The position numbers and the translations under genes are program-made. Below, piece by piece: positions 3,389-20,644 of a stretch of 64,000 bases of DNA; the first letter of the stretch is position 1, and each line of letters starts with the position of its first letter. The stretch is from Chloroflexota bacterium (GTDB lineage: Bacteria > Chloroflexota > Anaerolineae > B4-G1 > SLSP01). The DNA lies in NCBI GenBank assembly GCA_029555965.1, contig JAKQHY010000109.1:862-64861 (forward strand). Direction: 5' to 3'. The notes under the pieces are model-generated. The model was not told where the DNA came from. It saw only the letters and a program-made list of their open reading frames with translations, and ran no database searches.

Positions 3389-4264
3389 TTACTGCTTTTC
3401 AGCGCCGGCCATGGGCATTTCCATTTGTTCAAGTTCTGGCACTTGTTCGGAGGATAGCACGGCAATGTCGAAGCTGAGTTTGGGCAACGGCGCGCCGCTG
3501 CTGTGCTTTCCGCTTTCCCAGTCGCGGTGCGGATAGAAGAAGGAGATGGCTTCATTCAGGCGTTTATCCAACCGGTGCAGGGCCGTTTGACCTTCCTTAT
3601 CGGCTGTCGCCACTACGACGAACTGGTAATTGTTCAATTGCCCTACGAATGGATCGGTATCCAGGAATTCGACGGCGGTATTTTGCAGGATGAGGGCGAC
3701 AGCGCGCAGTACATCATCATGGGTGACAAACCCGTAAGAGGCGCCGAAATCGCGCATTCCGTTCAAAATAATACGAATTAAGGCCAGTTTAGTATCGTGC
3801 GCTACCCGTTCCATCTGTTCTGTTACCAGCACCGAGGTGGGCAGTCCTGTCACCGGATGCAAGAAGGTTTCACGGATGTTACGTTGGAGGATGTTGCGCA
3901 CCCGAATTCGCAATTCCTGCACATCAAAAGGTTTTGTAATGTAGTCTACTGCGCCCAACTCCAATCCTTGCAGGCGATCCATCCGTTCCCGGCGCTCCGT
4001 CAAAAAGATGATGGGGGTGTTTTCGGTGCGGCGTTGACTGCGTAGTCGTTCGCATACTTCATACCCGTCAATGTCGGGCAGATGGATGTCGAGCACCACC
4101 AAATCGGGCTGGGTTTTGGTCGCCATAGCCACCGCATCCTCGCCCCAGGCTGCATGATCAACGGTGTATCCCAGGGAAGTAAAATACGCCGACAGCATTT
4201 CGGCCGTATTGGGATCGTCTTCAACGACAAGAATGTGACGCGGCGTATCCTCTCCTGACTTCAC
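3389..4264 (-). CDS. Response regulator: REC domain plus degenerate GGDEF-like domain
   Basis: REC motifs ILVVEDD / LVVLDIHLPDIDG / IFLT / YITKPF. Then HPVTGLP and YGFVTHDDVLRAVA, with NNYQF at the GGDEF position. GTG at 4264 follows AGGAGA (track start is 4294). Confidence 0.85.
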   Translation of the reverse strand: MKSGEDTPRHILVVEDDPNTAEMLSAYFTSLGYTVDHAAWGEDAVAMATKTQPDLVVLDIHLPDIDGYEVCERLRSQRRTENTPIIFLTERRERMDRLQGLELGAVDYITKPFDVQELRIRVRNILQRNIRETFLHPVTGLPTSVLVTEQMERVAHDTKLALIRIILNGMRDFGASYGFVTHDDVLRAVALILQNTAVEFLDTDPFVGQLNNYQFVVVATADKEGQTALHRLDKRLNEAISFFYPHRDWESGKHSSGAPLPKLSFDIAVLSSEQVPELEQMEMPMAGAEKQ

Positions 4265-4286
4265 GCCACAGTCTCCTTTTACTAGA

Positions 4287-4925
4287 TTAGCCAATCGGCT
4301 CTTTGTAGACTGCGAAAGTGCAGTTCTCGTGGCTCATGCCGATGCAAGTCAGTTGATCCACCCGGAAAGTGCGTCCGCCGCTCAACCAGCGTAGCGCCTC
4401 TTCGATGATGCCTGCCGCGATGAAGCCGCCGGGCCGTTCCACCTTGCGTCCCCAGCACATGGAGCAGCGATCAATAATGTAGTGGAAGTGGTCGCCGCCG
4501 GGGTCTTTGACGTAAGAGGTCTGATCACTCAACGAGTCAAAAACTTTGGCAACCGCCGGTAGCCCTGCCTTGAGTTTTGCCTGTAGCGGCAGCACCTTGA
4601 AGGCCAGGTCGCTGGCGCCCACCAACGCGCCAAAGTTCGCCAGACCTTGCGCAAAGAGCACGCGCCCCAGGCGTAACTGCAAACCACGGCCTCCGCGCGG
4701 TCCGTACATTTCCTCCAGGGCGCGGTTCAATGCCGAGATATAGGCAAAATCAAACCCTTTGTCCATAATATCCGGCGGTGGATTGTCAATGAACATGGAA
4801 AGGCCCGCCATGTTGAGGATGGCGTTCAGGCCATTGCGCCCCATAATTTCTTCGAGGGCGTCAAAGAGGATGAGACCAAATCGGTTGGGATAGTAGAAAC
4901 CACTGGGTTCAGGGGTATTCGCCAC
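4287..4925 (-). CDS. V4R (4-vinyl reductase-like) ligand-binding domain protein
   Basis: ALEEIMGRNGLNAILNMAGL N-terminus; C-terminal CSMCWG...G..EEALRWLSGG...CIGMSHENCTF cysteine pattern typical of V4R. GTG start follows GGAGG. Confidence 0.85.
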   Translation of the reverse strand: MANTPEPSGFYYPNRFGLILFDALEEIMGRNGLNAILNMAGLSMFIDNPPPDIMDKGFDFAYISALNRALEEMYGPRGGRGLQLRLGRVLFAQGLANFGALVGASDLAFKVLPLQAKLKAGLPAVAKVFDSLSDQTSYVKDPGGDHFHYIIDRCSMCWGRKVERPGGFIAAGIIEEALRWLSGGRTFRVDQLTCIGMSHENCTFAVYKEPIG

Positions 4926-4944
4926 TGCAAACCTCCTTACGTTG

Positions 4945-5319
4945 CTAGAGAATCGTTGATAGTTCTTCTGCTGCCCGACGCATGTCGAGGAAAAGTAGCC
5001 CTAATTTAGCCTGTTGCCGGGCCAGGACAGTGAGCACCGCTTCCTCACCCACAGCGCGGAGGATAACGTAGCCTTTCTCGCCCTTGACATAGACTTCGTC
5101 AAGTACGCCTCGCCCTAACTCCCCCGCAATGCGCTCACCCAGGGACAACATCGCGGCAGACATCGCCGAGACGCGGTCCTCTTCAACGCCTTGTGGCAGG
5201 GATGTGGCGATGGGAAGGCCATCTACACTGATAATGGCGGATGCTTCGACATCGGGGCTGCTAACCTGTAGTTCGCGCAGTCGCTCCACCATCCGTTCAT
5301 TTCGTGACCTGTTTGCCAT
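4945..5319 (-). CDS. Roadblock/LC7 (MglB-like) protein
   Basis: ASAIISVDGLPIA...RVSAMSAAMLSLGERIAGELGRG...VYVKGEKGYV...AKLGLLFLDMRR. ATG at 5319 follows GGAGG. Confidence 0.92.
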   Translation of the reverse strand: MANRSRNERMVERLRELQVSSPDVEASAIISVDGLPIATSLPQGVEEDRVSAMSAAMLSLGERIAGELGRGVLDEVYVKGEKGYVILRAVGEEAVLTVLARQQAKLGLLFLDMRRAAEELSTIL

Positions 5320-5387
5320 ACTTCGCGCCCTCCGATAGGAATTTGTTGAACCAGGAAGAGTGATAGTTCCTGGGGCCATTCATAGAC

Positions 5388-5896: not shown

Positions 5897-8386
5897 ATGA
5901 TCGGGGTTGGCATGGAGCAGGTCAAAACAAAGCCCAAAGTTCTCTCAATAGATGATACGCCTTCGTCTCGCCGGTTAGTACAACGCCTGCTTTCGGCTCA
6001 CTATGAGGTTTTTGAAGCGAGTGACGGGCTGACCGGGATTGATGAGGCCTTGCAGGTCGAGCCAGCCTTGATTCTGGTAGATTTGAATCTACCGCAATTC
6101 ACGGGTTATGAAGTTGCCACCCGCCTTAAAGCCTTGATGCCCGATGTCCCCATTGTGGCCTTGAGCGCCGATATGTCTGACCATGTCCACGAGCGCGTGC
6201 TGGCTTCCGGCTGCGACGGCTATATCCCCAAACCGATTGATCCAGATACTTTTGAAGAACAGGTAGCCAATTTTCTTGGCGGTCAGCGAGAAGAATTGCT
6301 GGATGATAGCTACCGGGACGCCTATCAACAAACTCTCGTCGCACGGCTGGAACAGAAGGTGCGGGAGCTGACCGAGGCTCTCAAGAGCAACGCCGATCTG
6401 AACGAGCAGCACGCACAGCTTCTCAAAGAGACCCAGCGCCGGGCCATCTTGTTGGCGGCCGGCGCCAAGGTCGCGCAGAGCATTACCTCTATTCTGGATT
6501 TGGACGAGCTGCTACAGGCCACTGTAAAAATCATCGGGGAAGAGTTTGGGTTCTATTATGTAGGAGTGTTCCTGGTGGAGCCTGGCACAGACTGGTTGGT
6601 ATTGCGCGCCGGGTTGGGGGAGGCCGGCGCCGCGATGGTGGCTGCCGACCATCGCCTGAAGATCGGTGGACTTTCGATGGTCGGGGCGGCGACCAGTCGG
6701 CGCAAGGCTATCAGCGCGCGGGATGTGGGTGTGGCTCCTGTGCATTTCAAAAACCCCCATTTGCCGCTGACCCGTTCCGAAATGGCTTTGCCCCTGATCC
6801 TTGGCAATGAAATCATCGGCGCGCTGACGGTGCAGAGTGTTGAGGAAAACGCCTTTTCTCAGGATGACGTGAAGGCATTACAAACGATGGCGGATCAGTT
6901 GGCTGTCGCCATCCGTAATGCGACCACTTATTTAGAGAACACCCGGTTGCTGGCTAACGCGGAGCGGCGCACGCGCCTGCTCGAGGCCGCCGCGGAAGTC
7001 GGGCGGCGGGTGACATCCATTCTTGACACGGATACTCTGTTGAAAGAGACGGTGGATATTCTCTGCGACGCCTATGGCTTTTATTATGCCGGTGTGTTTC
7101 TGGTGGACCCGACGCTAGAGCGCAAAGGGCCGGACGGTGAGTTGGAGCAATGGGCCGTGTTGCGGGCGGGGCGCGGCGACGCCGGTCGGTTGATGATTGC
7201 TGCCGGGCACAAGCTCAAGGTGGGGGGACTCTCAATGATCGGGACGGCGATTGCGAGCCGCAAGGCGCTCATCGCACTGGATGTGGGGGAGGAGCCGGTC
7301 CATTTCAAGAACCCGCACTTGCCGCTGACCCGTTCGGAGATGGCGCTGCCGTTAGGGGTTGGCGACCGTGTGATCGGCGCGGTAACGGTGCAAAGCGCGG
7401 CGGAGGCGGCTTTCACCCCTGAGGACATCACGATATTGCAGTCCATGGTGGATCAGTTGGCGATTGCTATCGCCAATGCTCGCTTGCTTAAAGACCTGGA
7501 ATCGGCGCACTCTGAGTTGGTGCGCACCAAGACTTTCGAGGCTATCGCTACGGCTACCGGTGAGGCGATTCACTGGGTAGGCAATAAAGCGGCTCCTATT
7601 CCGGCCAGCGCGGGGCGTGTGGCAGAGGATGTGACGAGATATTTCTTGATGATGGATGGGGTATTGAAGCTGGCGCCCCCCGAATTGCAGGAACATAAAT
7701 TCTCGCAAATGTTGCGTGCGGCGGTGGAATATATTGAGGAATATGCCTCCGAAACAAACTTCGCGTTGGACGTGGTGGAATTGCGCGCCCAGTTGGAGCA
7801 GCGTTCTCTACGCCAACTCAGCCGCGCACTCTCAGCGGAATCCATTTTTGAGGATTTAGAGATTGCGCGACAAAGTTCCCGCTCGATTTTGAATATTAAA
7901 GAAGACCTGATCGGCCCGGCGCGTGAGAAGCATCTGGAGGCGGTGAATCTAGAACAATTTCTCAGGACCATTGTTAAGTCTATGGGTATCCCCGAAGGTG
8001 TGGCGCGCTATCTGTTTTCTGAAAACATGGCGCAGGCAAAGGCCGATATCCGGCAATTGGAGAATGTCTTCAACAACTTGCTTAAGAACGCAATGGAGGC
8101 GATGGACAAGGTTGAAGATAAAAAGTTATTTATTTGGGGTCGGCGCGCGGACGATCCCCGTTTTGTGGTCGTGGATATTACCGACAATGGCGAGGGAATT
8201 CCCTCAGAAATCATTGACAAAATATGGGTCCCCTTCTATACAACCAAGGGAAATCGCGGGGGAACAGGGTTGGGATTGCCGGCCTGCAATAAAATTATTA
8301 CACAATTAGGGGGGAAGCTTACTCTGGATAGCATGGTCGGTGAGGGTACTACGTTTAGCGTTTATCTTCCGATTTACAAAGAATGA
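5897..8386 (+). CDS. Hybrid sensor kinase REC-GAF-GAF-HisKA-like-HATPase
   Basis: REC (VLSIDD, LVDLNLP, YIPKP); two GAFs (HFKNPHLPLTRSEMALPL; DQLAVAI); H-box-like EAIHWVGNK; N box NLLKNA; G boxes DNGEGI and GTGLGL. Confidence 0.9.
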   Translation: MIGVGMEQVKTKPKVLSIDDTPSSRRLVQRLLSAHYEVFEASDGLTGIDEALQVEPALILVDLNLPQFTGYEVATRLKALMPDVPIVALSADMSDHVHERVLASGCDGYIPKPIDPDTFEEQVANFLGGQREELLDDSYRDAYQQTLVARLEQKVRELTEALKSNADLNEQHAQLLKETQRRAILLAAGAKVAQSITSILDLDELLQATVKIIGEEFGFYYVGVFLVEPGTDWLVLRAGLGEAGAAMVAADHRLKIGGLSMVGAATSRRKAISARDVGVAPVHFKNPHLPLTRSEMALPLILGNEIIGALTVQSVEENAFSQDDVKALQTMADQLAVAIRNATTYLENTRLLANAERRTRLLEAAAEVGRRVTSILDTDTLLKETVDILCDAYGFYYAGVFLVDPTLERKGPDGELEQWAVLRAGRGDAGRLMIAAGHKLKVGGLSMIGTAIASRKALIALDVGEEPVHFKNPHLPLTRSEMALPLGVGDRVIGAVTVQSAAEAAFTPEDITILQSMVDQLAIAIANARLLKDLESAHSELVRTKTFEAIATATGEAIHWVGNKAAPIPASAGRVAEDVTRYFLMMDGVLKLAPPELQEHKFSQMLRAAVEYIEEYASETNFALDVVELRAQLEQRSLRQLSRALSAESIFEDLEIARQSSRSILNIKEDLIGPAREKHLEAVNLEQFLRTIVKSMGIPEGVARYLFSENMAQAKADIRQLENVFNNLLKNAMEAMDKVEDKKLFIWGRRADDPRFVVVDITDNGEGIPSEIIDKIWVPFYTTKGNRGGTGLGLPACNKIITQLGGKLTLDSMVGEGTTFSVYLPIYKE

Positions 8387-8409
8387 CCATGGACGTATAC
8401 ACTTATTTT

Positions 8410-8552
8410 GTAACTGCGTGGCCGGGCCGATCTATGAGTAGAATGTGATCTGAAATCTGGTTAGGGGTGGTTTTTCATCGCCGAGCTGCTCTTGGCGGCG
8501 AAAAAGCCGCTTTATCTCGCCTCTACGCGGTGATGTCCAGGTTGGCAGTTAC
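8410..8552. repeat. Degenerate MITE/REP-like element with GTAACTGC...GCAGTTAC ends and a central hairpin
   Basis: 8-bp terminal inverted repeat; internal GGTTTTTC...GAAAAAGCC stem. Confidence 0.5.
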
Positions 8553-8588
8553 TCTATTTCATTACGTTAAGAAAGGTGGTAAAGGGCT

Positions 8589-8996
8589 ATGGATGAAGAG
8601 ATAAAGATTTTATTGGTTGATGATGAGCGTATGGTACGACGCAGTATGGAAAAGACCCTGACACGGGCCGGATTTTACGTCGTGACGGCAGAGGACACCG
8701 CTAGCGCGCTGGAACTGTTCAAAGAGGAACTGGCCGAGGAGCCGTTTGATCTGGCCTTGTTAGACCTGAACATGCCCAACTTTGAGGGTGTTCCGGCGGC
8801 CAACGCCGGCCTGGAGTTGTTGAGCGAATTGGTAAAATTGCAGCCCACTCTCCCGGTGGTGGTGTTGACCGCCTTTGATGAAGTTGAGCGCGCCAAAGAT
8901 GCCGTGGCGCGCGGCGCGCGTGCTTACTTTGTCAAAGGGCGTGAGGCCGGCCTGCTGGAATTGGTCAACGAAATCCTGGGCACGGAAGCGGCTTAG
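8589..8996 (+). CDS. Single-domain response regulator (REC)
   Basis: ILLVDD, LALLDLNMP, VVLTA, YFVKG. Confidence 0.92.
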   Translation: MDEEIKILLVDDERMVRRSMEKTLTRAGFYVVTAEDTASALELFKEELAEEPFDLALLDLNMPNFEGVPAANAGLELLSELVKLQPTLPVVVLTAFDEVERAKDAVARGARAYFVKGREAGLLELVNEILGTEAA

Positions 8997-9140
8997 CGTC
9001 ACGCGCCGGCGCAACCTAAGGAGTCGTCATGAACCGGGTTCAGCGACAAGGTCAAAAAATTCAATGCAGCGGCGCAGAACCGAGCGTTTTTGACTATAAG
9101 ACTATCTGACTAACGACTATCAGACTATTTTCGAAGGAGT

Positions 9141-11291
9141 ATGGGAATGGAGAAGCAGAATTTATCGGAACGGCGAGCGGCGCTGCTTCAGGCCGGCGCT
9201 CAGGTCAGTCGCAACATCATTTCGATTTTGGATCCTGAGGAGTTGTTGCAGAAGACAGTGGACATCATCTGTGAAGAGTTTGGGTTTTATTATGCCGGCG
9301 TCTTTCTATTGGATGAGACCGGCGAGTGGGCTGTATTACATTCCGGGCGGGGCGCGGCCGGGGCGGCGATGGTGGGCGAAGGTCACAAACTCAAGGTGGG
9401 GGGCCTTTCGATGATCGGCGCGGCCACTGGGCGTAACCAGGCGCTCATTGCCCTGGACGTAGGCGAAGAGCCGGTCCACTTCAAAAACCCCCACCTGCCG
9501 CTAACGCGCTCAGAGATGGCGTTGCCGTTGGCCGTTGGGGATACAGTGATCGGGGCGCTGACGGTGCAGAGTGTGGAAGAGGCTGCCTTCACGCGGGACG
9601 ACATTACTGCGCTGCAAGCTATGGCCGATCAGTTGGCGATCGCAATCCATAACGCGCGGCTGTATTCCCAGAACGCCCGGTTGCTCAAACAGGCTTCACG
9701 CCGCGCGCGCTTGTTGGAGGCGGCCGCGGAGGTAGGCGCGGGGGTGGCTTCTATTCTCGATTTGGACACCCTGCTGCACAAGACAGTGGACATCATTTGC
9801 AGCGCCTATGATTTTTACTATGCCGGTGTGTTCCTATTGGATGAAACCAGTGAGTGGGCCGTCCTACGCGCCGGGCACGGTGAGGCCGGCGCGAATATGG
9901 TGGCGTTGGGGCATAAACTCCAGGTGGGTGGGCTTTCGATGATCGGCACCGCCATCGCCGAGCGCAAGGCGCGTATCGCGCTGGACGTTGGCGAAGAGGC
10001 CGTACACTTCAAGAACCCACATCTGCCGCTGACCCGTTCGGAGATGGCGTTGCCGTTGGTCGTGGCCGAGGGTGAAAATCATGCGCGCGTCATCGGCGCG
10101 GTGACGGTGCAGAGCGTGGAAGAGGCCGCGTTCAGTCACGAGGATATCAGTTCTTTGCAGGCCATGGCCGATCAACTGGCGATTGCTCTGCACAACGCGC
10201 ATTTGCTCCACGAGTTGGAAATTGCCCACGCGGAATTGGTGCGCACCAAGACGTATGAGGCGGTGGCGACGGCGACCACAGAAGCGATCCACTGGATTGG
10301 CAACAAAGCGCTGCCCATCACGGTCAGTGTGCAGCGATTGCGCGATGATCTGAGTGATTTGTCGGATGTGGCGCCGGAGGTGATAGAGTCCCTGTTGGAG
10401 GACCTGACGCTCATTGATGACAGCGCGAAGCTGATCTTTGCGGTCAAGGAGCATCTCATTGGCCCGGCGCGCGAGTATATGCCGGCGCCCGCTATGATTG
10501 AGGATGTGGTTAGGGACGTGGTGACCCAGATGGCGCTGCCGGCGGAGTTGGTCAGCTACAAAATCGCTCCCAACTTGCCACTAGCCATCGCCGACACCAC
10601 CCAGTTGAATCGCGCGCTGACCTACGTGTTGCAAAATGCCGTGGAGGCGATGCAGAAGGCGCCGGCTCCCCACATTCAGGTGACGTTGGCGCCGGCTGAG
10701 GAAAAGGGCGCCCTTTACGTGAGTGTGCGGGTAGCCGATGTCGGGCCGGGCATCTCCGCCAGTGAGATGGATAAGATGTGGGCGGCGTTTTACACCACAA
10801 AAGGCGCCAAACACGCGGGCCTGGGGCTTTCGGCCTGCCTGCAAATCATGAAGCAGATTGATGGTAAAATCGTGGCGGCCAATCGTCCAGAAGGCGGCGC
10901 CGAATTCACGCTCTTCATTCCTGCGGATTTGGGGACGCAGAAGCCGGCGGAACTGCCGGCGGGGCGCTCCCTATTGTTAGTGGATGACGACGATGTGTGG
11001 AGCCGCTTCGTTGAGGAGCTGCTCACCAATGCCGGCAACTCTGTCAGCCGGGCGCCGGATGGGGAGGCGCCCCTCAGTGATTTCGACTTGATCCTGGTGG
11101 ACTATACGCTCTCTGGGGGAAGCTGCACGAAGGTATTGGCGAAAATTGCTAAGGCTGGCATGGCCGACCGCACCTTGGTGGTATCCTCCAACTTGCGAGT
11201 GGAACAGACCATGGAACTGATGCGGTTTGGCGTCCGCGACGTGATCGTGAAGCCCTATACCCATGCGGCATTGGCGGCCAAACTCGGCTAG
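9141..11291 (+). CDS. Hybrid sensor kinase GAF-GAF-HisKA-like-HATPase-REC
   Basis: Two GAFs nearly identical to those of 5897-8386; EAIHWIGNK; YVLQNA; DVGPGI; FYTTK; AGLGL; C-terminal REC (LLVDDD, LILVD, VIVKP). Confidence 0.9.
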   Translation: MGMEKQNLSERRAALLQAGAQVSRNIISILDPEELLQKTVDIICEEFGFYYAGVFLLDETGEWAVLHSGRGAAGAAMVGEGHKLKVGGLSMIGAATGRNQALIALDVGEEPVHFKNPHLPLTRSEMALPLAVGDTVIGALTVQSVEEAAFTRDDITALQAMADQLAIAIHNARLYSQNARLLKQASRRARLLEAAAEVGAGVASILDLDTLLHKTVDIICSAYDFYYAGVFLLDETSEWAVLRAGHGEAGANMVALGHKLQVGGLSMIGTAIAERKARIALDVGEEAVHFKNPHLPLTRSEMALPLVVAEGENHARVIGAVTVQSVEEAAFSHEDISSLQAMADQLAIALHNAHLLHELEIAHAELVRTKTYEAVATATTEAIHWIGNKALPITVSVQRLRDDLSDLSDVAPEVIESLLEDLTLIDDSAKLIFAVKEHLIGPAREYMPAPAMIEDVVRDVVTQMALPAELVSYKIAPNLPLAIADTTQLNRALTYVLQNAVEAMQKAPAPHIQVTLAPAEEKGALYVSVRVADVGPGISASEMDKMWAAFYTTKGAKHAGLGLSACLQIMKQIDGKIVAANRPEGGAEFTLFIPADLGTQKPAELPAGRSLLLVDDDDVWSRFVEELLTNAGNSVSRAPDGEAPLSDFDLILVDYTLSGGSCTKVLAKIAKAGMADRTLVVSSNLRVEQTMELMRFGVRDVIVKPYTHAALAAKLG

Positions 11292-11314
11292 TGATGGCGG
11301 CTGATTTCAGGCAT

Positions 11315-11341
11315 CGCGGCCGACACATCGTGTCGGCCGCG
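11315..11341. terminator. Hairpin between convergent genes (probable bidirectional terminator)
   Basis: CGCGGCCGACAC-ATC-GTGTCGGCCGCG, perfect 12-bp stem. Confidence 0.65.
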
Positions 11342-11345
11342 TTTA

Positions 11346-12473
11346 TTAGGGGATGGGGGGAGGCAGGTACGCGGCATCAAAGGTTGCTATTGCGCCCTCA
11401 AATGCTGCGAGCCATTCGCGGAAGGCGTGGCGCAGGGTGTCCCGCTCTGCTTCTGGGATGAAAGCGGCCTCGACTGAATGGCGCAGCATCCGGTAAATGA
11501 AATGCGGCGCCAGTCCAATCTCATCCGTCGCCACGACGTATTCCTGGCTCAACGTTGTTGCGCTGATACTGGGATCATCCGTGTTCAGGGTGACGTACAT
11601 TCCCAATTTGAACAAATCGTACAGGGGATGTTGGCTCAAGCCGCGCACGATACCGGTGTGCAAATTGCTGGTGGGGCAAACCTCAAGGGTGATGTGGCGC
11701 TCGCGCAACATCTGTATGGTGTCGGAATTTTCAATGGCCCGGACGCCATGTCCAATGCGCTGCGCGCCCAAATTCAATACGGCGGTGCGGATGCTGTTGT
11801 CGCTGTCGGCGTTGATCGCTTCGCCCGCATGAACCGTGATGTTGAGTCCGGCTTGTTTGGCGCGACGGAAAATCGGCTCAAAGCGGCCGGCCGGATGCAT
11901 GGCTTCGTCGCCGGCCAGGTCAATGCCCCGCACCAACAAGCCCAAATGTGCCAGGGCGAGGTCGGTAATCTCTTCCGCAGTACGAAGCTGTTCATTGCGT
12001 CCGATCTGGAAAATGAGGCAGGTGCGCGTGTTGCTGGTCTCTTGCGCCTGCGTCACCGCTTCAATGACCCAATCCACAACATCGTGCAGCCGAAAGTGAT
12101 GGACGCGCGAGAGCGCCACCGGGTTGAAGCGCAACTCCAGGTAACGGATGTTATCGGCGGCAGCGTCCAAGACGGCCTCTTGGGCAATGCGTTTTACGGC
12201 TTCTTTGGAGGTATAGAAGCGGCGCAGGATTTGGAATTTTTGTAAAAAGGTGTCCAGGCGGTGAGGCCCGTCGGTCATCTGAACGTAGGGGCGCAGGCCT
12301 TCCATATCGTGGGAAGGAAGATCAAGGCCGTGCTCCTGTGCAATTTCGAGCAATGTTGCCAGACGCAGGGAGCCTTCCAGATGGCGGTGCAGGTCAATCT
12401 TGGGGAGAGCCTGCGCCCATTCTTTCCGCGTTTGCGGCGCTGTGTCCAGGCTGTTTTCTTGGCGTGGGGTCAT
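11346..12473 (-). CDS. add: Adenosine deaminase family amidohydrolase
   Basis: LPKIDLHRHLEGS, YLELRFNP, GIDLAGDE, TVHAGE, RIGHG, LEVCPTSN, LNTDDP: metal and catalytic residues intact. Probable start ATG at 12473. Confidence 0.92.
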   Translation of the reverse strand: MTPRQENSLDTAPQTRKEWAQALPKIDLHRHLEGSLRLATLLEIAQEHGLDLPSHDMEGLRPYVQMTDGPHRLDTFLQKFQILRRFYTSKEAVKRIAQEAVLDAAADNIRYLELRFNPVALSRVHHFRLHDVVDWVIEAVTQAQETSNTRTCLIFQIGRNEQLRTAEEITDLALAHLGLLVRGIDLAGDEAMHPAGRFEPIFRRAKQAGLNITVHAGEAINADSDNSIRTAVLNLGAQRIGHGVRAIENSDTIQMLRERHITLEVCPTSNLHTGIVRGLSQHPLYDLFKLGMYVTLNTDDPSISATTLSQEYVVATDEIGLAPHFIYRMLRHSVEAAFIPEAERDTLRHAFREWLAAFEGAIATFDAAYLPPPIP

Positions 12474-12519
12474 GACTTGGGTGATTTCTATGGGAAAAGT
12501 TCCAAAGCGCGGTCTGCGA

Positions 12520-12855
12520 TTAACGTTCCCGCAGCAACCAACCCCAGTAAATCGCCGCAACGCTCAGGTTCAAGCTCACGCCCAGGGTCAGCGGGAGGTA
12601 AAATAATGTCAAGAGGAGCGCGGGGGTGAGTTTTATAACGGGAGGAGAAACAAGTGCGACACTGCACATCAGCAGGTAACTCAACGTCGCGGTCAGAATG
12701 AGCAGCATCCCTACGTCAAACCATTTGTAATGGGGCGGCATACGGGTGACCTCTCCCATCCGCCGGCTCAGGACACGCAACAGCCAGTTCAAGTAGAGCA
12801 TCGCCAGGAATAGGCCGGCGCCGAGGTGTGAGGTCAGAACTTCAGCGGCGTTCAT
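12520..12855 (-). CDS. Small membrane protein with about 3 TM helices (KaiC-associated pair, member 2)
   Basis: Three hydrophobic segments; LSRRMGEVTRMPPHYKWF loop; ends YWGWL; overlaps the upstream gene by 14 nt. Confidence 0.8.
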   Translation of the reverse strand: MNAAEVLTSHLGAGLFLAMLYLNWLLRVLSRRMGEVTRMPPHYKWFDVGMLLILTATLSYLLMCSVALVSPPVIKLTPALLLTLFYLPLTLGVSLNLSVAAIYWGWLLRER

Positions 12856-13171
12856 TCGTTTTTCCTCCCATCATCTTTTCATGCAAGGCGTTGCTTAATC
12901 CAATAAGCCATAATCCGCTGATGAACATCAGGCTGTTGGCCAGCGGGTCGCCCACGAAATCCGGCCAACGGTCCGCTACTAGAAACACGCGCCACAAGTA
13001 GCGCAGCGCGCTGATGCCTGTCAAACTGATGGGGATGAGATAGAGTTGATAGTAGGTCCTTTGACCAGAGGTATGCTCGAAGAAGCGCGCAATGCTCATG
13101 ACAATAATCTGCAATAAGACTATCCCGACCCAAATTGCAATACTAAAAATTAGGTTAGTAATTGGCTGCAT
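12842..13171 (-). CDS. Small membrane protein with about 3 TM helices (KaiC-associated pair, member 1)
   Basis: Three hydrophobic segments; IARFFEHTSGQRTYYQLY loop; starts 3 nt after the KaiC-like stop. Confidence 0.8.
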   Translation of the reverse strand: MQPITNLIFSIAIWVGIVLLQIIVMSIARFFEHTSGQRTYYQLYLIPISLTGISALRYLWRVFLVADRWPDFVGDPLANSLMFISGLWLIGLSNALHEKMMGGKTNERR

Positions 13172-13174
13172 AAT

Positions 13175-14020
13175 TCATTTCCTCACAAAAGCCTTGATGA
13201 AGGATGCCGCCATTCGCTTAGGGGTCCCGCTCATCAGACCCTCCTGTCCCTCAAAGGGCGCCATCACCACCAGGCCGCGTGCATCAATCTCGAACTGTCG
13301 GATGGCGCTGTCGTGGGCGCTCCCGCGCATTTTCAGCACAATGATCGCGCGCCGGACCGCGCTCATGATTTCGACATAGCGCAGCATCGTGTATGAATCC
13401 ACAATAAAATGAATACCGGCCCCGCCGGAGAAGCCTTCCTCGTCTCCAAATAAGAAGGTCGTCTCACGGGTCAACAGGGTGGTCATTCCTTGACGTTTCA
13501 GCGCGTTCAGGAAGCTATAGAGGCGGTCACGTTCCACGAACTTTTCCGAAGCACCGGGCGCCGGGGTTCCCCGCGCCATCAGACTCACCTTGCTCTTAGG
13601 CGCCGCATTGGGGGAATGGGCCATCGCGGACTCATAGTGGGTGACACTGTCAATCAAAATTCGTTTGGCGTCCATCTGGGCGATGGTGTGTTCCAGGACG
13701 CCATTCGCGTGTTCCAGGTCTATTTGGGTAACCTCGGGGCTGGTGATGATGACCTTGAGCAATCCCTCTTGTTCTAAACGACGAAAATCCCACCCGAAGG
13801 CGGCGGCCATCTGGTAGTAGGTTTCCGGCAACGCCTCAAAGGTGAGAATGATGCCCGGTTCGCCCTGTTGGGCGCCGTGATAGATGAATTGCATCCCCAG
13901 AGTGCTTTTGCCGCAACCAGGCGGCCCCTCAATCAGATTTGTGGTATTGGGGAGATACCCGCCGCCCAACATGGTGTCAAATCCGGTGATGCCTGTTTGT
14001 ATCCTGGTATCGTATGACAT
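13175..14020 (-). CDS. Single-domain KaiC-like (RecA-superfamily) ATPase
   Basis: TGITGFDTMLGGG, Walker A GPPGCGKST, Walker B ILIDS, IIVLKMRGSAHD. Confidence 0.92.
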   Translation of the reverse strand: MSYDTRIQTGITGFDTMLGGGYLPNTTNLIEGPPGCGKSTLGMQFIYHGAQQGEPGIILTFEALPETYYQMAAAFGWDFRRLEQEGLLKVIITSPEVTQIDLEHANGVLEHTIAQMDAKRILIDSVTHYESAMAHSPNAAPKSKVSLMARGTPAPGASEKFVERDRLYSFLNALKRQGMTTLLTRETTFLFGDEEGFSGGAGIHFIVDSYTMLRYVEIMSAVRRAIIVLKMRGSAHDSAIRQFEIDARGLVVMAPFEGQEGLMSGTPKRMAASFIKAFVRK

Positions 14021-14031
14021 CGGTGGCGTCC

Positions 14032-14397
14032 TTACTTCCGTATCAGGTGATAGACTGCTTTGCGGCGAAATTCACGATCGTTTGTAGCTTCGGTGAATTT
14101 CTGTACTTTGTCCTGTAGCTCGGCGTTGGGTTTCAAGACATAGGCCAGCATATTGCCGACCACGACTTCGTCCAGCAGTCCGTGGGCTTTGAGAAAGGAC
14201 AAAGCGTCTTGCACATCTTCTTTATCCCGACCAAGATAACGGGCGATCCCCTCGGCGGTGTCAAAAGTGTTGGGGTTCTGGTGAAAGAATAGCAGCAATT
14301 CCCACTTGATGAAAGAATCCACATAAGTGGTCAAGAAATCCAACAGATCTGGATCCAAATCCTGGGGTACGCGGGTATTCAAGGTATGCATTTTCAT
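14032..14397 (-). CDS. Small winged-helix-like protein
   Basis: VDSFIKWELLLFFHQNP...TAEGIARYLGRDKEDVQDALSFLKAHGLL pattern resembles a wHTH; lies 11 nt before the KaiC-like gene. Start uncertain (14391, 14397 or 14439). Confidence 0.7.
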   Translation of the reverse strand: MKMHTLNTRVPQDLDPDLLDFLTTYVDSFIKWELLLFFHQNPNTFDTAEGIARYLGRDKEDVQDALSFLKAHGLLDEVVVGNMLAYVLKPNAELQDKVQKFTEATNDREFRRKAVYHLIRK

Positions 14398-14445
14398 CGT
14401 TCTTCTCGACTGGTCATAAATGACGTGAGTTCCGCGCAAAGTTTG

Positions 14446-17631
<3,186 letters not shown>

Positions 17632-17859
17632 CCAGGTCTCCTGAGTTGATAATTAGAACGTGACGTGTTGTGGTGGGCCATTGAAAATCCCGCCGGTCAG
17701 TCTGGCCGGCCCACTATGCCAGTTTTATCCATTCTGTAGCTGTCATTATATCATACCCAGGCGACTGGACAATGGTTTTGCGTTGGACGTGGTCATTTCT
17801 TTGCCGGGTGGGATGCTCGCGGCGGTGGTTGTTTTAAAGACATTCTATGGGGGATTTGA

Positions 17860-17970
17860 TGAAAATAGCCCTTCATGGCCTGACCCCCCGGTGAGGGGGA
17901 ATCCGGGGGGTCAGCAGCCAAGGAAAGGAGGAGAGGTGTAATGGGTTTGGTCCCATCAAAACCTCATTGT
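17860..17970 (-). ncRNA. Candidate small RNA or structured leader with anti-Shine-Dalgarno (CCUCUCCUCCUUU) motifs
   Basis: Minus strand: short hairpin ATGGG-ACCAAA-CCCAT, unpaired ACACCTCTCCTCCTTT, then stem CTGACCCCCCGG/CCGGGGGGTCAG with loop ATTCCCCCTCA. TATGAT lies just upstream (17976-17981). Confidence 0.4.
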
Positions 17971-18185
17971 TCTCCATCATAGCCGCGTTCCAAGCCAGGG
18001 AATAGTGATGGATAGCTATAGATTGCATGACGTAAATCCTTTGGGTGGGTCAGGCGTGATGCGCGATGGCCATGGACAGGATAGTTTTTCCAAAGTTGGG
18101 TTTTGTGCTACACTACCCATAGAGTATTCCCAATTTTGTAAAAAGGGTTACTGACCCTGGGGACAGCCCCACTAATGAAAGTTTT

Positions 18186-18252
18186 CGCCACGGAGACACG
18201 GAGACTTAGCGATTTTATGGAATTTTCTCCGTGTCCTCTGTGTCTCTGTGGT
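18186..18252. repeat. 9-nt periodic palindromic repeat (CACGGAGA.../...CTCTGTGT)
   Basis: gccacggagacacggaga ... tctccgtgtcctctgtgtctctgtgg inverted arms. Confidence 0.7.
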
Positions 18253-18276
18253 TATTTTATACAAGGAGAGAGACAA

Positions 18277-18708
18277 ATGAACGAAACATTGAACCCGCAA
18301 ACCGCCACTGAAGAGATGCCGGAGCAGCCGGAAGTAACTCAAGCCGCGCATGATGTGACCGCGCAGACCGTTTCCATCGAGCAAGGAGGGGCAGAAAACG
18401 TCAAAGCTGATCAGGTTTTTGTCGAGCAAGGCGGTATTGGACAAGTCGAAGCGCAATTTGTGGATGTGAAGCAAGGCGGGATCGCGCTGGCGATGGGCAC
18501 AAACATCACCCTGACGGATGGGGCCGCGGTAGCAGTGGTGGCGGAGAACGTTAAGATGACCGACACGCTAGTTTTCCTGGTCGCTGCTGAAAAAATCGAA
18601 GGGGAAGATACCACCATCCTCTTTGATCTGCGCGCCGCGGTCGTCCTGGGTGTCATTTTGGGCGTTGTGGCTACCTTCTTGGGGCGGATTTTTGCCCGCC
18701 ACGACTAG
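18277..18708 (+). CDS. Hypothetical protein with 15-aa QGG repeats and a C-terminal TM anchor
   Basis: ATG at 18277 follows AAGGAG; SIEQGG / FVEQGG / DVKQGG at 15-aa spacing; hydrophobic AAVVLGVILGVVATFLG tail. Confidence 0.75.
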   Translation: MNETLNPQTATEEMPEQPEVTQAAHDVTAQTVSIEQGGAENVKADQVFVEQGGIGQVEAQFVDVKQGGIALAMGTNITLTDGAAVAVVAENVKMTDTLVFLVAAEKIEGEDTTILFDLRAAVVLGVILGVVATFLGRIFARHD

Positions 18709-18769
18709 GGGGAAGTGAACTCGGATCGCCTTTCACGTCCCACCTATCTGGAATTTTTGAGACAGCGTT

Positions 18770-20644
18770 ATGTCATTTCCCGAACGCATCGGCAAGTACG
18801 AAATCCTCGCCGAAATTGGCTATGGTGGCTTTGCGGCGGTCTATAAGGCGCATGATTCGGCTACCGGGCGCATTGTCGCCCTCAAGGTTATGCACACCTA
18901 CTGGCAGACCGATGCGGCCTTCGTCCGCCGCTTCCGCCGCGAAGGCTTTGAAATGTCACGCCTGCACCATCCGAATATCGTGACGGTTTATGAATCGGGA
19001 GAATGGGAGCAGTACCTGTATATCGCTATGGAATACCTGGCGGGGCGCACTTTAAATGACGTGTTGAAATCGGAGATAACCCTTTCTCTGGAACGGACCG
19101 TCAGTATTCTGGAACCGATTGCCTCCGCATTGGATTACGCTCACCGGCAAGGTGTCATTCACCGGGACATCAAACCGGCAAATGTACTCCTGGATGAGTC
19201 TGGCGGTCGCTTACAGGTGACGCTGTTGGACTTTGGGTTGGTAAAGGCGTTGGCGGGCAGCTCCGCGTTGACTTCTCAGGGGATGTTGGTCGGTTCCCCG
19301 GAGTATATGGCCCCGGAACAGGCAAATTTGGAGTTGCGGCGCGATGTTGGCTCGGCCGCAGATCGTTATTCGTTGGGAGTGCTGGCGTACCGCATGTTGA
19401 CGGGGCGCGTGCCGTTCCCCGGCAATACCCCGGCCACACTCAACGCTCACGAACACAAGCCGGTGCCCCCCCCCCAAGAATTTCGTCCTGATTTGCCCGA
19501 TGAAGTCGCCGATACCCTGCTTAAAATGCTGGCGAAGAACCCTGGTGAGCGATTTCCGACGGCGGGGGCCTTTGTCGCACAACTGCGGGTGGCGGCAGAT
19601 ACGCAGGTCAACGTGCAAGAGCGTGACACGCAGTTGACGGCTCTGTATGGACAGTTAGATGTTGCCGCCCGCGAGCACCGGTGGCGCGAGGTGCTGGGGC
19701 TGGCCGGCGAGATTCAGACGCTTGATCGCCATTACCGTGACGTGCAGTCGCGCCTCGCGGCGGCGCAGCAGGCGCTGGGCGTGCAATCGGCGTCCGCCCG
19801 GCGACGCACGCGTTGGTGGCGCGGTCTGGGTATCGTCGGCGCGTCATTGGCGCTGGTGGCCTTATTCTGGAGCTGGCGGAGGCTCGCTTTTCCGGCGACG
19901 CTGCCGCACAATGCGAAAGTCGGACAAACCTGGACGCGCCCTACCGATGGTATGACCCTCGTATACGTTCCCCCCGGCATGTTCTTGATGGGCGCCGCGG
20001 ACGGCGATCCCGACGAGCAGCCGGTTCATTCGGTGACGCTTGCCGGATTCTGGTTGGATCGTACGGAAGTGAGTGAGGCGCAGTACGCGCAGTGTGTGTC
20101 CACCGGGGCATGTCGGGCGCTGGCGGCGTCGGCAACCGGTCCGAATTATCCGGCGGTGGGTGTTTCATGGGAGGACGCGACTGCCTACTGCGCCTGGGCC
20201 GGCGCCCGCCTGCCGACCGAAGCTGAATGGGAATATGCCTATCGCGGTGTGGAAACCCGGATTTATACCTGGGGCAACACCTTCGATCCAGTTCGCGTCA
20301 ATTTTTGCGACATGCATTGCTCTGAAATGTGGTCGGCGCCTGACCAGGATGATGGATATGCTGAGGGGGCGCCTGTGGAGAGCTACGTGGCCGGGGCGAG
20401 CTGGTGCGGGGCGCGCAATCTGGCCGGCAATGCCTGGGAGTGGGTGGGGGACTGGTATCACGCAGAGGCTTATGCGACTGCGGCCTCGCAAAATCCCACC
20501 GGCCCGGCAAGCGGCACTTTGCGGGTGCTGCGCGGCGGCTCTTGGAGCAGTCCCTCCTACAATGTGCGTGGCAGTTATCGTTTCTCCGGGGATCCAACTC
20601 AAAGCGATCCTACCTGGGGATTCCGTTGCGCGCAGTCACGCTAA
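18770..20644 (+). CDS. Hanks-type Ser/Thr kinase, TM helix, and FGE-sulfatase (SUMF1-like) domain
   Basis: IGYGGFAAVY, VALK, HRDIKPAN, DFG, YMAPE; TM GLGIVGASLALVALF; RLPTEAEWEYA, NLAGNAWEW, RGGSW, GFRC. Confidence 0.93.
   Translation: MSFPERIGKYEILAEIGYGGFAAVYKAHDSATGRIVALKVMHTYWQTDAAFVRRFRREGFEMSRLHHPNIVTVYESGEWEQYLYIAMEYLAGRTLNDVLKSEITLSLERTVSILEPIASALDYAHRQGVIHRDIKPANVLLDESGGRLQVTLLDFGLVKALAGSSALTSQGMLVGSPEYMAPEQANLELRRDVGSAADRYSLGVLAYRMLTGRVPFPGNTPATLNAHEHKPVPPPQEFRPDLPDEVADTLLKMLAKNPGERFPTAGAFVAQLRVAADTQVNVQERDTQLTALYGQLDVAAREHRWREVLGLAGEIQTLDRHYRDVQSRLAAAQQALGVQSASARRRTRWWRGLGIVGASLALVALFWSWRRLAFPATLPHNAKVGQTWTRPTDGMTLVYVPPGMFLMGAADGDPDEQPVHSVTLAGFWLDRTEVSEAQYAQCVSTGACRALAASATGPNYPAVGVSWEDATAYCAWAGARLPTEAEWEYAYRGVETRIYTWGNTFDPVRVNFCDMHCSEMWSAPDQDDGYAEGAPVESYVAGASWCGARNLAGNAWEWVGDWYHAEAYATAASQNPTGPASGTLRVLRGGSWSSPSYNVRGSYRFSGDPTQSDPTWGFRCAQSR

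Follow-up and report, generated by a model that had tools for sequence, protein, structure and literature searches.

Genes from secA to an adenosine deaminase gene form a conserved block in Anaerolineae-type Chloroflexota and enclose a candidate KaiC-like regulatory cassette

We analyzed a stretch of 64,000 nucleotides (hereafter the window) from a Chloroflexota bacterium (GenBank assembly GCA_029555965.1, contig JAKQHY010000109.1, positions 862 to 64,861 of the forward strand). In this window, six co-oriented genes follow one another from secA, which encodes the secretion motor, to add, which encodes an enzyme of the adenosine deaminase (ADA) family. The four genes in between encode a small winged-helix-like protein (wHTH-like), a KaiC-like ATPase and two small membrane proteins that we call TM-A and TM-B. 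Comparison with related genomes shows that this block, from secA through add, is a selected unit. It is vertically inherited, operon-like and found here only in Anaerolineae-type Chloroflexota. The six genes are arranged as follows, coordinates being those of the window.

14446 to 17631, minus strand: secA, first gene of the conserved block, an open reading frame (ORF) of 1061 amino acids (aa).
14032 to 14397, minus strand: gene of the small winged-helix-like protein (wHTH), 121 aa, an ORF with sub-threshold helix-turn-helix (HTH) matches.
13175 to 14020, minus strand: gene of the single-domain KaiC/RecA-type ATPase, 281 aa, assigned by PF06745.
12842 to 13171, minus strand: TM-A, a predicted three-segment membrane protein of 109 aa, assigned by hydropathy and a conserved loop.
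12520 to 12855, minus strand: TM-B, a predicted three-segment membrane protein of 111 aa, assigned by hydropathy and a conserved loop, with a 14-nucleotide (nt) overlap with TM-A.
11346 to 12473, minus strand: add, last gene of the block, encoding an adenosine-deaminase-family enzyme of 375 aa from its ATG, assigned by TIGR01430 and PF00962.

Along this series the spacings are 48, 11, 3, -14 and 46 nt. An earlier sequence-only reading of the same DNA had described five co-oriented genes directly behind secA, with gaps of 11, 3, -14 and about 46 nt, as a candidate purine-linked signalling module. All five ORFs do lie on the minus strand 3' of secA, and their coordinates reproduce these gaps.

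The conservation of the block was assessed by scanning a species-representative genome collection with an alignment of 19 members of the KaiC-like family as seed. Of the 318 KaiC-like-encoding stretches obtained, the best 80, with at most 8 kb on either side, provide all the counts given below. These 80 loci come from different species-level genomes labelled by NCBI as Anaerolineae, Thermoflexia, Caldilineae, one Chloroflexia and unclassified Chloroflexota, and their genes were delimited by crude longest-ORF calls. With the window proteins as tblastn queries, the wHTH-like protein was matched in 80/80 loci, the KaiC-like protein in 80/80, TM-B in 76/80, TM-A in 67/80 and the add product in 63/80; SecA was matched in 76/80, the other 4 loci being cut off upstream. 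All matches of the six genes share the strand of the KaiC-like gene and the order of the window, and the recurrence of one order and strand in 80 loci is far beyond chance. The secA gene is directly 5' of the wHTH-like gene in 76/76 assessable loci, with 22-630 nt between the ends of the high-scoring segment pairs (HSPs), and -11 to +92 nt separate the HSP ends of TM-A and TM-B in the 65 loci where both were found. The idea that these genes form one unit is thus borne out by a common order and strand in different species-level genomes, and the membrane proteins do co-occur with the KaiC-like gene, TM-B in 76 and TM-A in 67 of the 80 loci. The five-gene module of the sequence-only reading is itself conserved, but its tightest linkage, which is to secA, had been overlooked.

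As a control, every ORF of at least 90 aa in the first 34 kb of the window was run by tblastn against the 80 loci. The five window ORFs beyond secA match 1, 11, 2, 8 and 7 loci, those still farther past secA match 0-2, and those beyond a trio of signalling genes located on the other side of add (see below) also match 0-2. According to the crude gene calls, the neighbor 5' of secA is rare or unique in 41/74 cases. At the opposite end, at least seven recurrent gene types occur 3' of add, including argS in 16 loci, a convergent GAF kinase in 12, a phosphotransacylase gene in 5 and a metallo-beta-lactamase gene in 3. Since the outer flanks vary while the genes from secA to add are kept, the conserved block starts at secA and ends at add; its rigid core is secA-wHTH-KaiC-TM-A-TM-B. 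The identities to the window rise and fall together in the six genes (Spearman 0.56-0.82), a pattern in keeping with joint vertical descent rather than with mobility. For SecA, the identity to the window has a median of 59% and is below 50% in part of the loci.

Two observations concern secA itself. Seven loci (L045, L067, L068, L072, L076, L077 and L080) encode a long form of SecA, up to ~2100-2200 aa, in which ~1000 extra residues are found after or inside the wing/scaffold domain; SecA domains were confirmed on one long-form relative. Besides, a ribose-phosphate pyrophosphokinase gene is present 5' of secA in five loci.

The KaiC-like protein matches PF06745 with an E-value of 5.3e-49 and 167.1 bits (cut-off 26.6), in two stretches around an insert. 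Its family comprises 729 clusters at E<=1e-10 among 1636 candidates. The best 120 clusters show at least 51% identity, and all the organism names attached to them are Anaerolineae or Chloroflexota. G35, G37, K38, the glutamate of a TFE motif (Glu62), the Walker B aspartate (Asp124) and the arginine of a KMRGS motif (Arg232) are invariant in an alignment of 34 sequences. The Walker A motif reads GxxGxGK[ST], and the motifs line up with their KaiC equivalents. Opposite ISTITD of the KaiC CII domain stands IHFIVD, with a His-Phe pair in place of the Ser-Thr autophosphorylation pair (S431/T432) of KaiC; across the family the Phe is nearly invariant and the position preceding it is variable. The ATPase keeps its nucleotide-binding and catalytic residues and is devoid of the clock phosphorylation pair. 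The last dozen residues (M-x-x-SF-x-x-AF-x-R) are conserved, basic and amphipathic. After Walker B, at residues ~130-160 (window 13530-13640), the alignment displays a low-complexity insert, variable in length and sequence, which is restricted to the window protein and its nearest relatives.

Several known identities were considered for this ATPase and discarded. A circadian KaiC has two tandem domains (~500 aa) where this protein has one of 281 aa, the Ser-Thr pair is missing, and the circadian KaiC equivalog models give 156.5 bits for a cut-off of 408 and 120.1 bits for a cut-off of 546.25; moreover, KaiA and KaiB families were not found among the window ORFs scanned. The archaellum protein ArlH was rejected on the basis of its model score (36.7 bits against a cut-off of 215), and the ArlI, ArlJ and archaellin families had no match among the window ORFs and the locus gene-family representatives scanned. 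All the archaeal KaiC models of NCBIfam stayed below their cut-offs for the KaiC-like protein. Anti-phage defence was rejected as well: PADLOC matches the KaiC-like protein only via mad8, over the P-loop (E 4.4e-6), it gives no match for the wHTH-like protein, TM-A or TM-B, and no known defence system yielded a relevant PADLOC match for the cassette proteins.

For the wHTH-like protein, the matches obtained with the window sequence, MarR_2 (E 1.6e-3), HVO_A0114 and TrmB, are all below cut-off, and its relatives reach 29.4 bits against DUF7342, whose cut-off is 31.6. Among structures of the PDB, it weakly matches the putative regulator 3r0a with an E-value of 5.7e-3 and BlaI/ArsR-type repressors with E-values of 0.35-0.8. 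The family is large, with 1299 clusters and a mean column identity of 59%. The 120 clusters listed are 121-146 aa long, and every organism name given among them is Chloroflexota.

Neither TM-A nor TM-B has a Pfam or NCBIfam match. Family-mean hydropathy displays three peaks in each, at near-identical places (8-24, 43-59 and 80-96 for TM-A; 10-26, 46-62 and 82-98 for TM-B). In both families the strongest conservation is found in the basic loop that follows the first segment, which reads IARF[YF]E-x-TSGQ in TM-A and LSRR-x-G-x-VTKM-x-x-YY-x-WF in TM-B; a C-terminal YWGW is also conserved in TM-B. The sequence-only reading had noticed analogous loops after the first segment. The loop sequences are present, and comparison of the TM-A and TM-B profiles with hhalign aligns them with each other (probability 89.5%, E 2e-6) over 65 columns that cover segment 1, the loop and segment 2. 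This alignment shows TM-A and TM-B to be distant paralogues. Lys/Arg counts, interpreted with the positive-inside rule, predict that the loop after segment 1 and the C-terminus are cytoplasmic, whereas the predicted outside parts are limited to ~6-10 N-terminal residues and ~10 residues between segments 2 and 3. With almost no extracytoplasmic mass, the role of membrane sensor previously proposed for the pair is doubtful.

For TM-B, an exhaustive search at E<=1e-3 retrieved 56 representative clusters with lengths of 83-146 aa; for TM-A, a word-based search retrieved 4 close relatives. An Atlas search with the two proteins yielded only Chloroflexota clusters without an assigned name. No solved-structure relative was found for TM-A. 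The sole structure match of TM-B, to a segment of a G-protein-coupled receptor (E 3.7e-4), is short and chance-like and was set aside. ORFs of ~200 aa that looked like fused TM-A/TM-B proteins were rejected as artefacts of the crude calls, the two proteins being in different frames in the four loci inspected by hand (L005, L042, L056 and L073).

We also scanned positions 11000-18200 for transcription signals. Two sites frame the block.

17745 to 17772, minus strand: promoter-like site 5' of secA, TTGTCC and TATAAT spaced by 16 nt, with a TG extension, 10/12 positions matching.
11315 to 11341, no strand assigned: GC-rich hairpin of 12 bp (10 of them G-C), located where add and a histidine-kinase gene converge.

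The strongest promoter-like match of this region is the extended -10 site before secA (17772-17745), and a TATAAT is present within 250 nt 5' of secA in 52/61 related loci. The same hexamer occurs in 2/76 secA-wHTH spacers, 8/40 TM-B-add spacers and 4/80 KaiC coding regions; the looser TGnTAnAAT is present in 13/76 secA-wHTH spacers. At the other end, the strongest terminator-like site is the hairpin 11315-11341 after add, which is likely to be a two-way terminator. The other 10 terminator-like sites are all within coding coordinates, and none was found in any spacer from secA to add. The search for an operator upstream of secA, by exact 8-mer counts, returned only the -10 box and an element of the divergent gene, and Rfam gave no match at E<=0.1 over 11000-19000.

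Between secA and the divergent ORF 18175-18708, on the plus strand (17875-17995), we observed a GC-rich hairpin, then a very strong Shine-Dalgarno-like run and an ORF of 13 codons. Within this region, 21 consecutive bases are exactly conserved in 11/80 loci, even though SecA identity is ~66-90%. The fold of the region has a z-score of -2.96, and there is no Rfam match. This element may be a leader, or a small RNA, belonging to the divergent gene.

In 31 loci, a gene encoding a soluble kinase starts at the TM-B stop, with a median gap of -4 nt as measured on longest ORFs and a gap of -274 to +56 nt in 30/31 of them. In all of the complete examples (7/7), HisKA and HATPase_c come after 2-7 GAF domains. 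This multi-GAF histidine kinase coupled to TM-B strengthens the signalling character attributed to the module by the sequence-only reading. The clade of the window is devoid of a TM-B-adjacent kinase. It possesses instead, in 13 loci, a convergent trio 3' of add made of two GAF hybrid kinases and a response regulator (RR), whose members were assigned from their Pfam domains.

5897 to 11291, plus strand: the convergent signalling trio as a whole.
5897 to 8386, plus strand: RR-GAF2-kinase.
8589 to 8996, plus strand: response regulator.
9141 to 11291, plus strand: GAF2-kinase-RR.

Two other features of the window were recorded farther away. At 3389-5379 (minus strand), a response regulator, V4R-like and Roadblock/LC7 proteins are encoded in tandem, a row that resembles the neighbourhoods of MglB-type small-GTPase regulators. 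At 18770-20644 (plus strand), a Ser/Thr protein kinase is fused with an FGE-sulfatase (formylglycine-generating-enzyme-like) domain.

The last gene of the block deserves particular attention. Its product matches PF00962 (E 9e-81) and scores 269.5 bits with TIGR01430, above the cut-off of 216.55. Its best solved relatives are the adenosine deaminases 6n9m and 6n91, aligned end to end with an E-value of 6e-59, and it scores 203 bits for enterobacterial-type Add structures as compared with 133 for 3rys, reportedly the adenine deaminase AAur1117 (Goble et al. 2011). The motifs HxH, VHAGE, GHG and NTDDP correspond position by position to those of 6n9m, 6n91 and mammalian ADA; the zinc ligands and the catalytic Glu, His and Asp are therefore retained, as had been claimed. 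Domain scans revealed no extra sensor or effector domain in this protein, and the other window ORFs scanned have no ADA-family match. The sequence-only reading viewed the enzyme as making or removing a purine signal instead of serving salvage. It scores as an ordinary adenosine deaminase nearest to 6n9m and 6n91, which argues against this view.

One position is peculiar. The add product has a Glu (HRHLEG, window 12390-12410) where ADA has an Asp, and HRHLEG is found in 51/52 orthologue ORFs, the remaining ORF call being without its N-terminus. An Asp occupies this position in 6n9m, 6n91, 9vlv and 1ndv, and a Glu in 3rys. In ADA, the Asp after HxH holds the ribose hydroxyls. In the plant N6-methyl-AMP deaminase, the residue at this place, Asn17, binds the phosphate (PMC6451127). 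From this contact and from the Glu of 3rys, we infer that the position can influence which adenine compound is accepted, and on this basis the substrate of the add product may differ from plain adenosine.

The position of add could be judged in 68 loci, the other 12 being on contigs too short. The gene is downstream and on the same strand in 63 of these 68, so that its linkage to the module, the absence of which would have spoken against the sequence-only reading, holds in relatives. It lies less than 500 nt from TM-B in 41 loci and 1-5.3 kb 3' in 22, behind a kinase gene with or without a phosphotransacylase gene. In 5 loci (L064, L067, L072, L077 and L080) it is absent from at least 7.1 kb downstream although the cassette is intact. 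On a tree built from the wHTH-like and KaiC-like proteins, add switches at least 10 times between being adjacent, distant and absent, with about 5 changes each for the adjacent and distant states forced by well-supported branches. These repeated changes indicate that add stayed behind the cassette despite the gain or loss of intervening genes. The housekeeping genes argS, dcd, gcvH/P and prs are found near add. Its distance in 22 loci, its loss in 5 and this housekeeping company weaken the idea that the deaminase is a part of the module.

Two other features were noticed at this end of the block. A small RelA/SpoT-type HD-domain protein of ~150 aa is encoded directly 3' of add in L013 (10709-11158), L017 and L024. 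In loci without add, a 234-aa P-loop protein is found at its place, between two phosphotransacylase genes. As a substitute for add, the protein at this place in the add-less clade (c20) was rejected: it has weak RadA-like matches only and is neither an ADA nor a clear KaiC relative.

How could the products of this block work together? We propose, at about even chances of being right, that it encodes a KaiC-like/wHTH regulatory cassette anchored in the membrane and expressed from the secA promoter, and that add is a neighbor transcribed along with it. TM-A and TM-B would together make up a membrane anchor of six segments. The KaiC-like ATPase, which probably assembles into a ring as its relatives do, would dock on the cytoplasmic loops of this anchor, possibly via its conserved amphipathic C-terminal tail. 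ATP turnover would shift the state of the wHTH-like protein and, where present, of the GAF kinase, so that the output would be transcriptional or a phosphorelay. The whole block would be driven mainly by the conserved secA promoter, and the switch would thus be made in step with the secretion motor. The last gene, add, would most likely encode an ordinary purine-salvage deaminase, not a signal-making one. Several points weigh against this proposal. The winged-helix assignment derives solely from sub-threshold matches, and the membrane topology from hydropathy and charge counts, segments 2 and 3 of the window TM-A being only moderately hydrophobic. An internal promoter before the wHTH gene may exist in some lineages. 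The invariant Glu is atypical for the ADAs that the add product otherwise resembles, and the persistence of add through switches of state and changing 3' neighbors suggests that it may not be a mere bystander. Finally, the counts come from 80 of 318 stretches and from at most 8 kb around each KaiC-like gene.

Some of these points lead to a rather improbable alternative, namely that the deaminase belongs to the signalling machinery itself and produces or removes a purine ligand, be it adenosine, adenine, cAMP or another adenine compound, to which the cassette and/or the GAF kinases respond. The maintenance of add in 63/68 assessable loci through at least 10 changes of state and at least seven types of downstream neighbor, the end of the conserved block exactly at add, and the invariant HRHLEG (51/52 ORFs) at a position able to set substrate choice would fit such a role, as would the GAF-rich kinases that crude gene calls place in linkage with the block in 44 loci and the small RelA/SpoT-type HD protein after add in 3. 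However, the deaminase is above the curated adenosine-deaminase cut-off, nearest to enterobacterial-type Add and without added sensor or effector domain; add lies 1-5.3 kb away from TM-B in 22 loci and is missing from 7.1 kb or more in 5 that keep the cassette intact, and it has links to argS and dcd as well. In addition, inspection by eye showed no cyclic-nucleotide motif of the NKFDE type in the GAF domains of the window. At the other end of the block, one could assume that the cassette serves SecA, by monitoring or tuning export or membrane-protein insertion or by feeding back on the secA operon, as a functional analogue of secM-type control. We consider this unlikely. It is true that secA is the tightest partner (76/76 assessable loci) while the genes 5' of it are not conserved, that the main conserved promoter precedes secA, and that the cassette combines two integral membrane proteins with an ATPase bearing a basic amphipathic tail. 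Nevertheless, family and structure searches found nothing in the cassette that resembles a Sec, YidC or SecDF component, no operator-like repeat was found in a search limited to 8-mer counts, the frequent histidine-kinase partner points to signalling, and linkage to an essential, strongly expressed gene may merely supply expression.

In a more sceptical view, the functional unit would stop at the four-gene core or would not exist, and secA and add would be bystanders kept close by slow rearrangement in this lineage. In its favor, the identities of all six genes co-vary as under plain vertical descent, a single lineage of a single phylum was sampled and the neighbourhood contains several housekeeping genes. 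Nonetheless, flanking genes turn over freely at the same divergence (0-11/80 loci), some loci share less than 50% SecA identity with the window (median 59%), and gene starts and stops overlap or nearly touch; we find this view very unlikely. Conversely, the most ambitious hypothesis would join most of these elements in a new bacterial signalling device. There, a KaiC-type ATPase anchored by the membrane pair would read adenine-compound status, the Glu-type deaminase would shape this status, the GAF kinases would sense it and gene expression would be set via the wHTH-like protein, in step with the secretion motor. Such a device is quite unlikely in our opinion, and we favor the membrane-anchored cassette with a co-transcribed salvage deaminase.

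A parallel can be drawn with archaea, where single-domain KaiC-like ATPases are said to have been proposed as signal-transduction hubs, by Makarova, Galperin and Koonin in mBio in 2017. These hubs, of which PH0186 (2zts), PH0284 (2dr3) and SSO2452 (2w0m) are solved examples, are the closest concept to the cassette. As in the hubs, there is one RecA-type KaiC domain with intact Walker motifs, and the KaiC-like gene stands beside small HTH-like and membrane proteins and often a histidine kinase; the KaiC-like profile matches 2zts with an E-value of 1.4e-36 and 2dr3 with 4.3e-34. Unlike them, the present system is bacterial and, within the sample, confined to Anaerolineae-type Chloroflexota, its KaiC-like protein scores better against true KaiC than against the archaeal single-domain proteins, and its partner families TM-A, TM-B and wHTH-like have no curated model. 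A fixed place behind secA is not known from the archaeal hub systems. Cyanobacterial KaiC has the same fold and provides the closest solved relatives of the family profile (E 1e-103). Both proteins are associated with histidine kinases, SasA and CikA in the case of cyanobacteria, and CikA carries a GAF domain. In contrast, the present protein has one domain and not two, His-Phe and not Ser-Thr, and no kaiA or kaiB was present among the window ORFs scanned. Another single-domain KaiC-like protein, the archaellum protein ArlH, was recently reported in Chloroflexota (PMC12488501). ArlH belongs here to the same phylum and works with a membrane protein; it differs from the KaiC-like protein by the low score of the latter with its model and by the lack of ArlI, ArlJ and archaellin among the scanned ORFs and representatives.

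The deaminase can be compared in the same manner. It shares its motifs with the housekeeping Add represented by 6n9m and 6n91 and departs from it by the Glu that replaces the Asp of HxHxDG and by its fixed place at the end of the block. Signalling and defence enzymes, namely RdrB of RADAR and CARF-ADA (Cad1), have the deaminase fold in common with the add product, which matches CARF_ADA of PADLOC with an E-value of 3.9e-57, over the ADA domain only, and PDB 9ebt with 5.7e-23. Unlike CARF-ADA, it has no CARF or other sensor domain. Unlike RADAR, it matches RdrB models at E ~3e-3 only and reaches 37.4 bits with the NCBIfam RdrB model, whose cut-off is 800; no RdrA or CRISPR genes were found nearby among the scanned window ORFs. 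As for secA, the secM-secA-mutT operon of E. coli unites it in one transcript with a regulator that acts on secA expression and with a housekeeping enzyme for purine nucleotides. The present block has no sequence relationship with that operon, and its additional genes, located 3' of secA, are those of an ATPase, membrane proteins and a wHTH-like protein. Full-text literature searches found no description of this gene combination, and the papers on KaiC in Anaerolineae among their matches concern the archaellum.

Sediments, digesters and hot springs harbor abundant Anaerolineae-type Chloroflexota, few of which have been cultured. The presence of this block beside the essential secA gene in all assessable loci points to something basic and uncharacterised in their cell biology. 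Three protein families that have no curated model (TM-A, TM-B and wHTH-like) emerge from it, and its ATPase, proposed membrane anchor and kinase make up a concrete system for testing. With the cassette, the concept of KaiC-like signalling hubs, so far an archaeal one, would also apply to bacteria.

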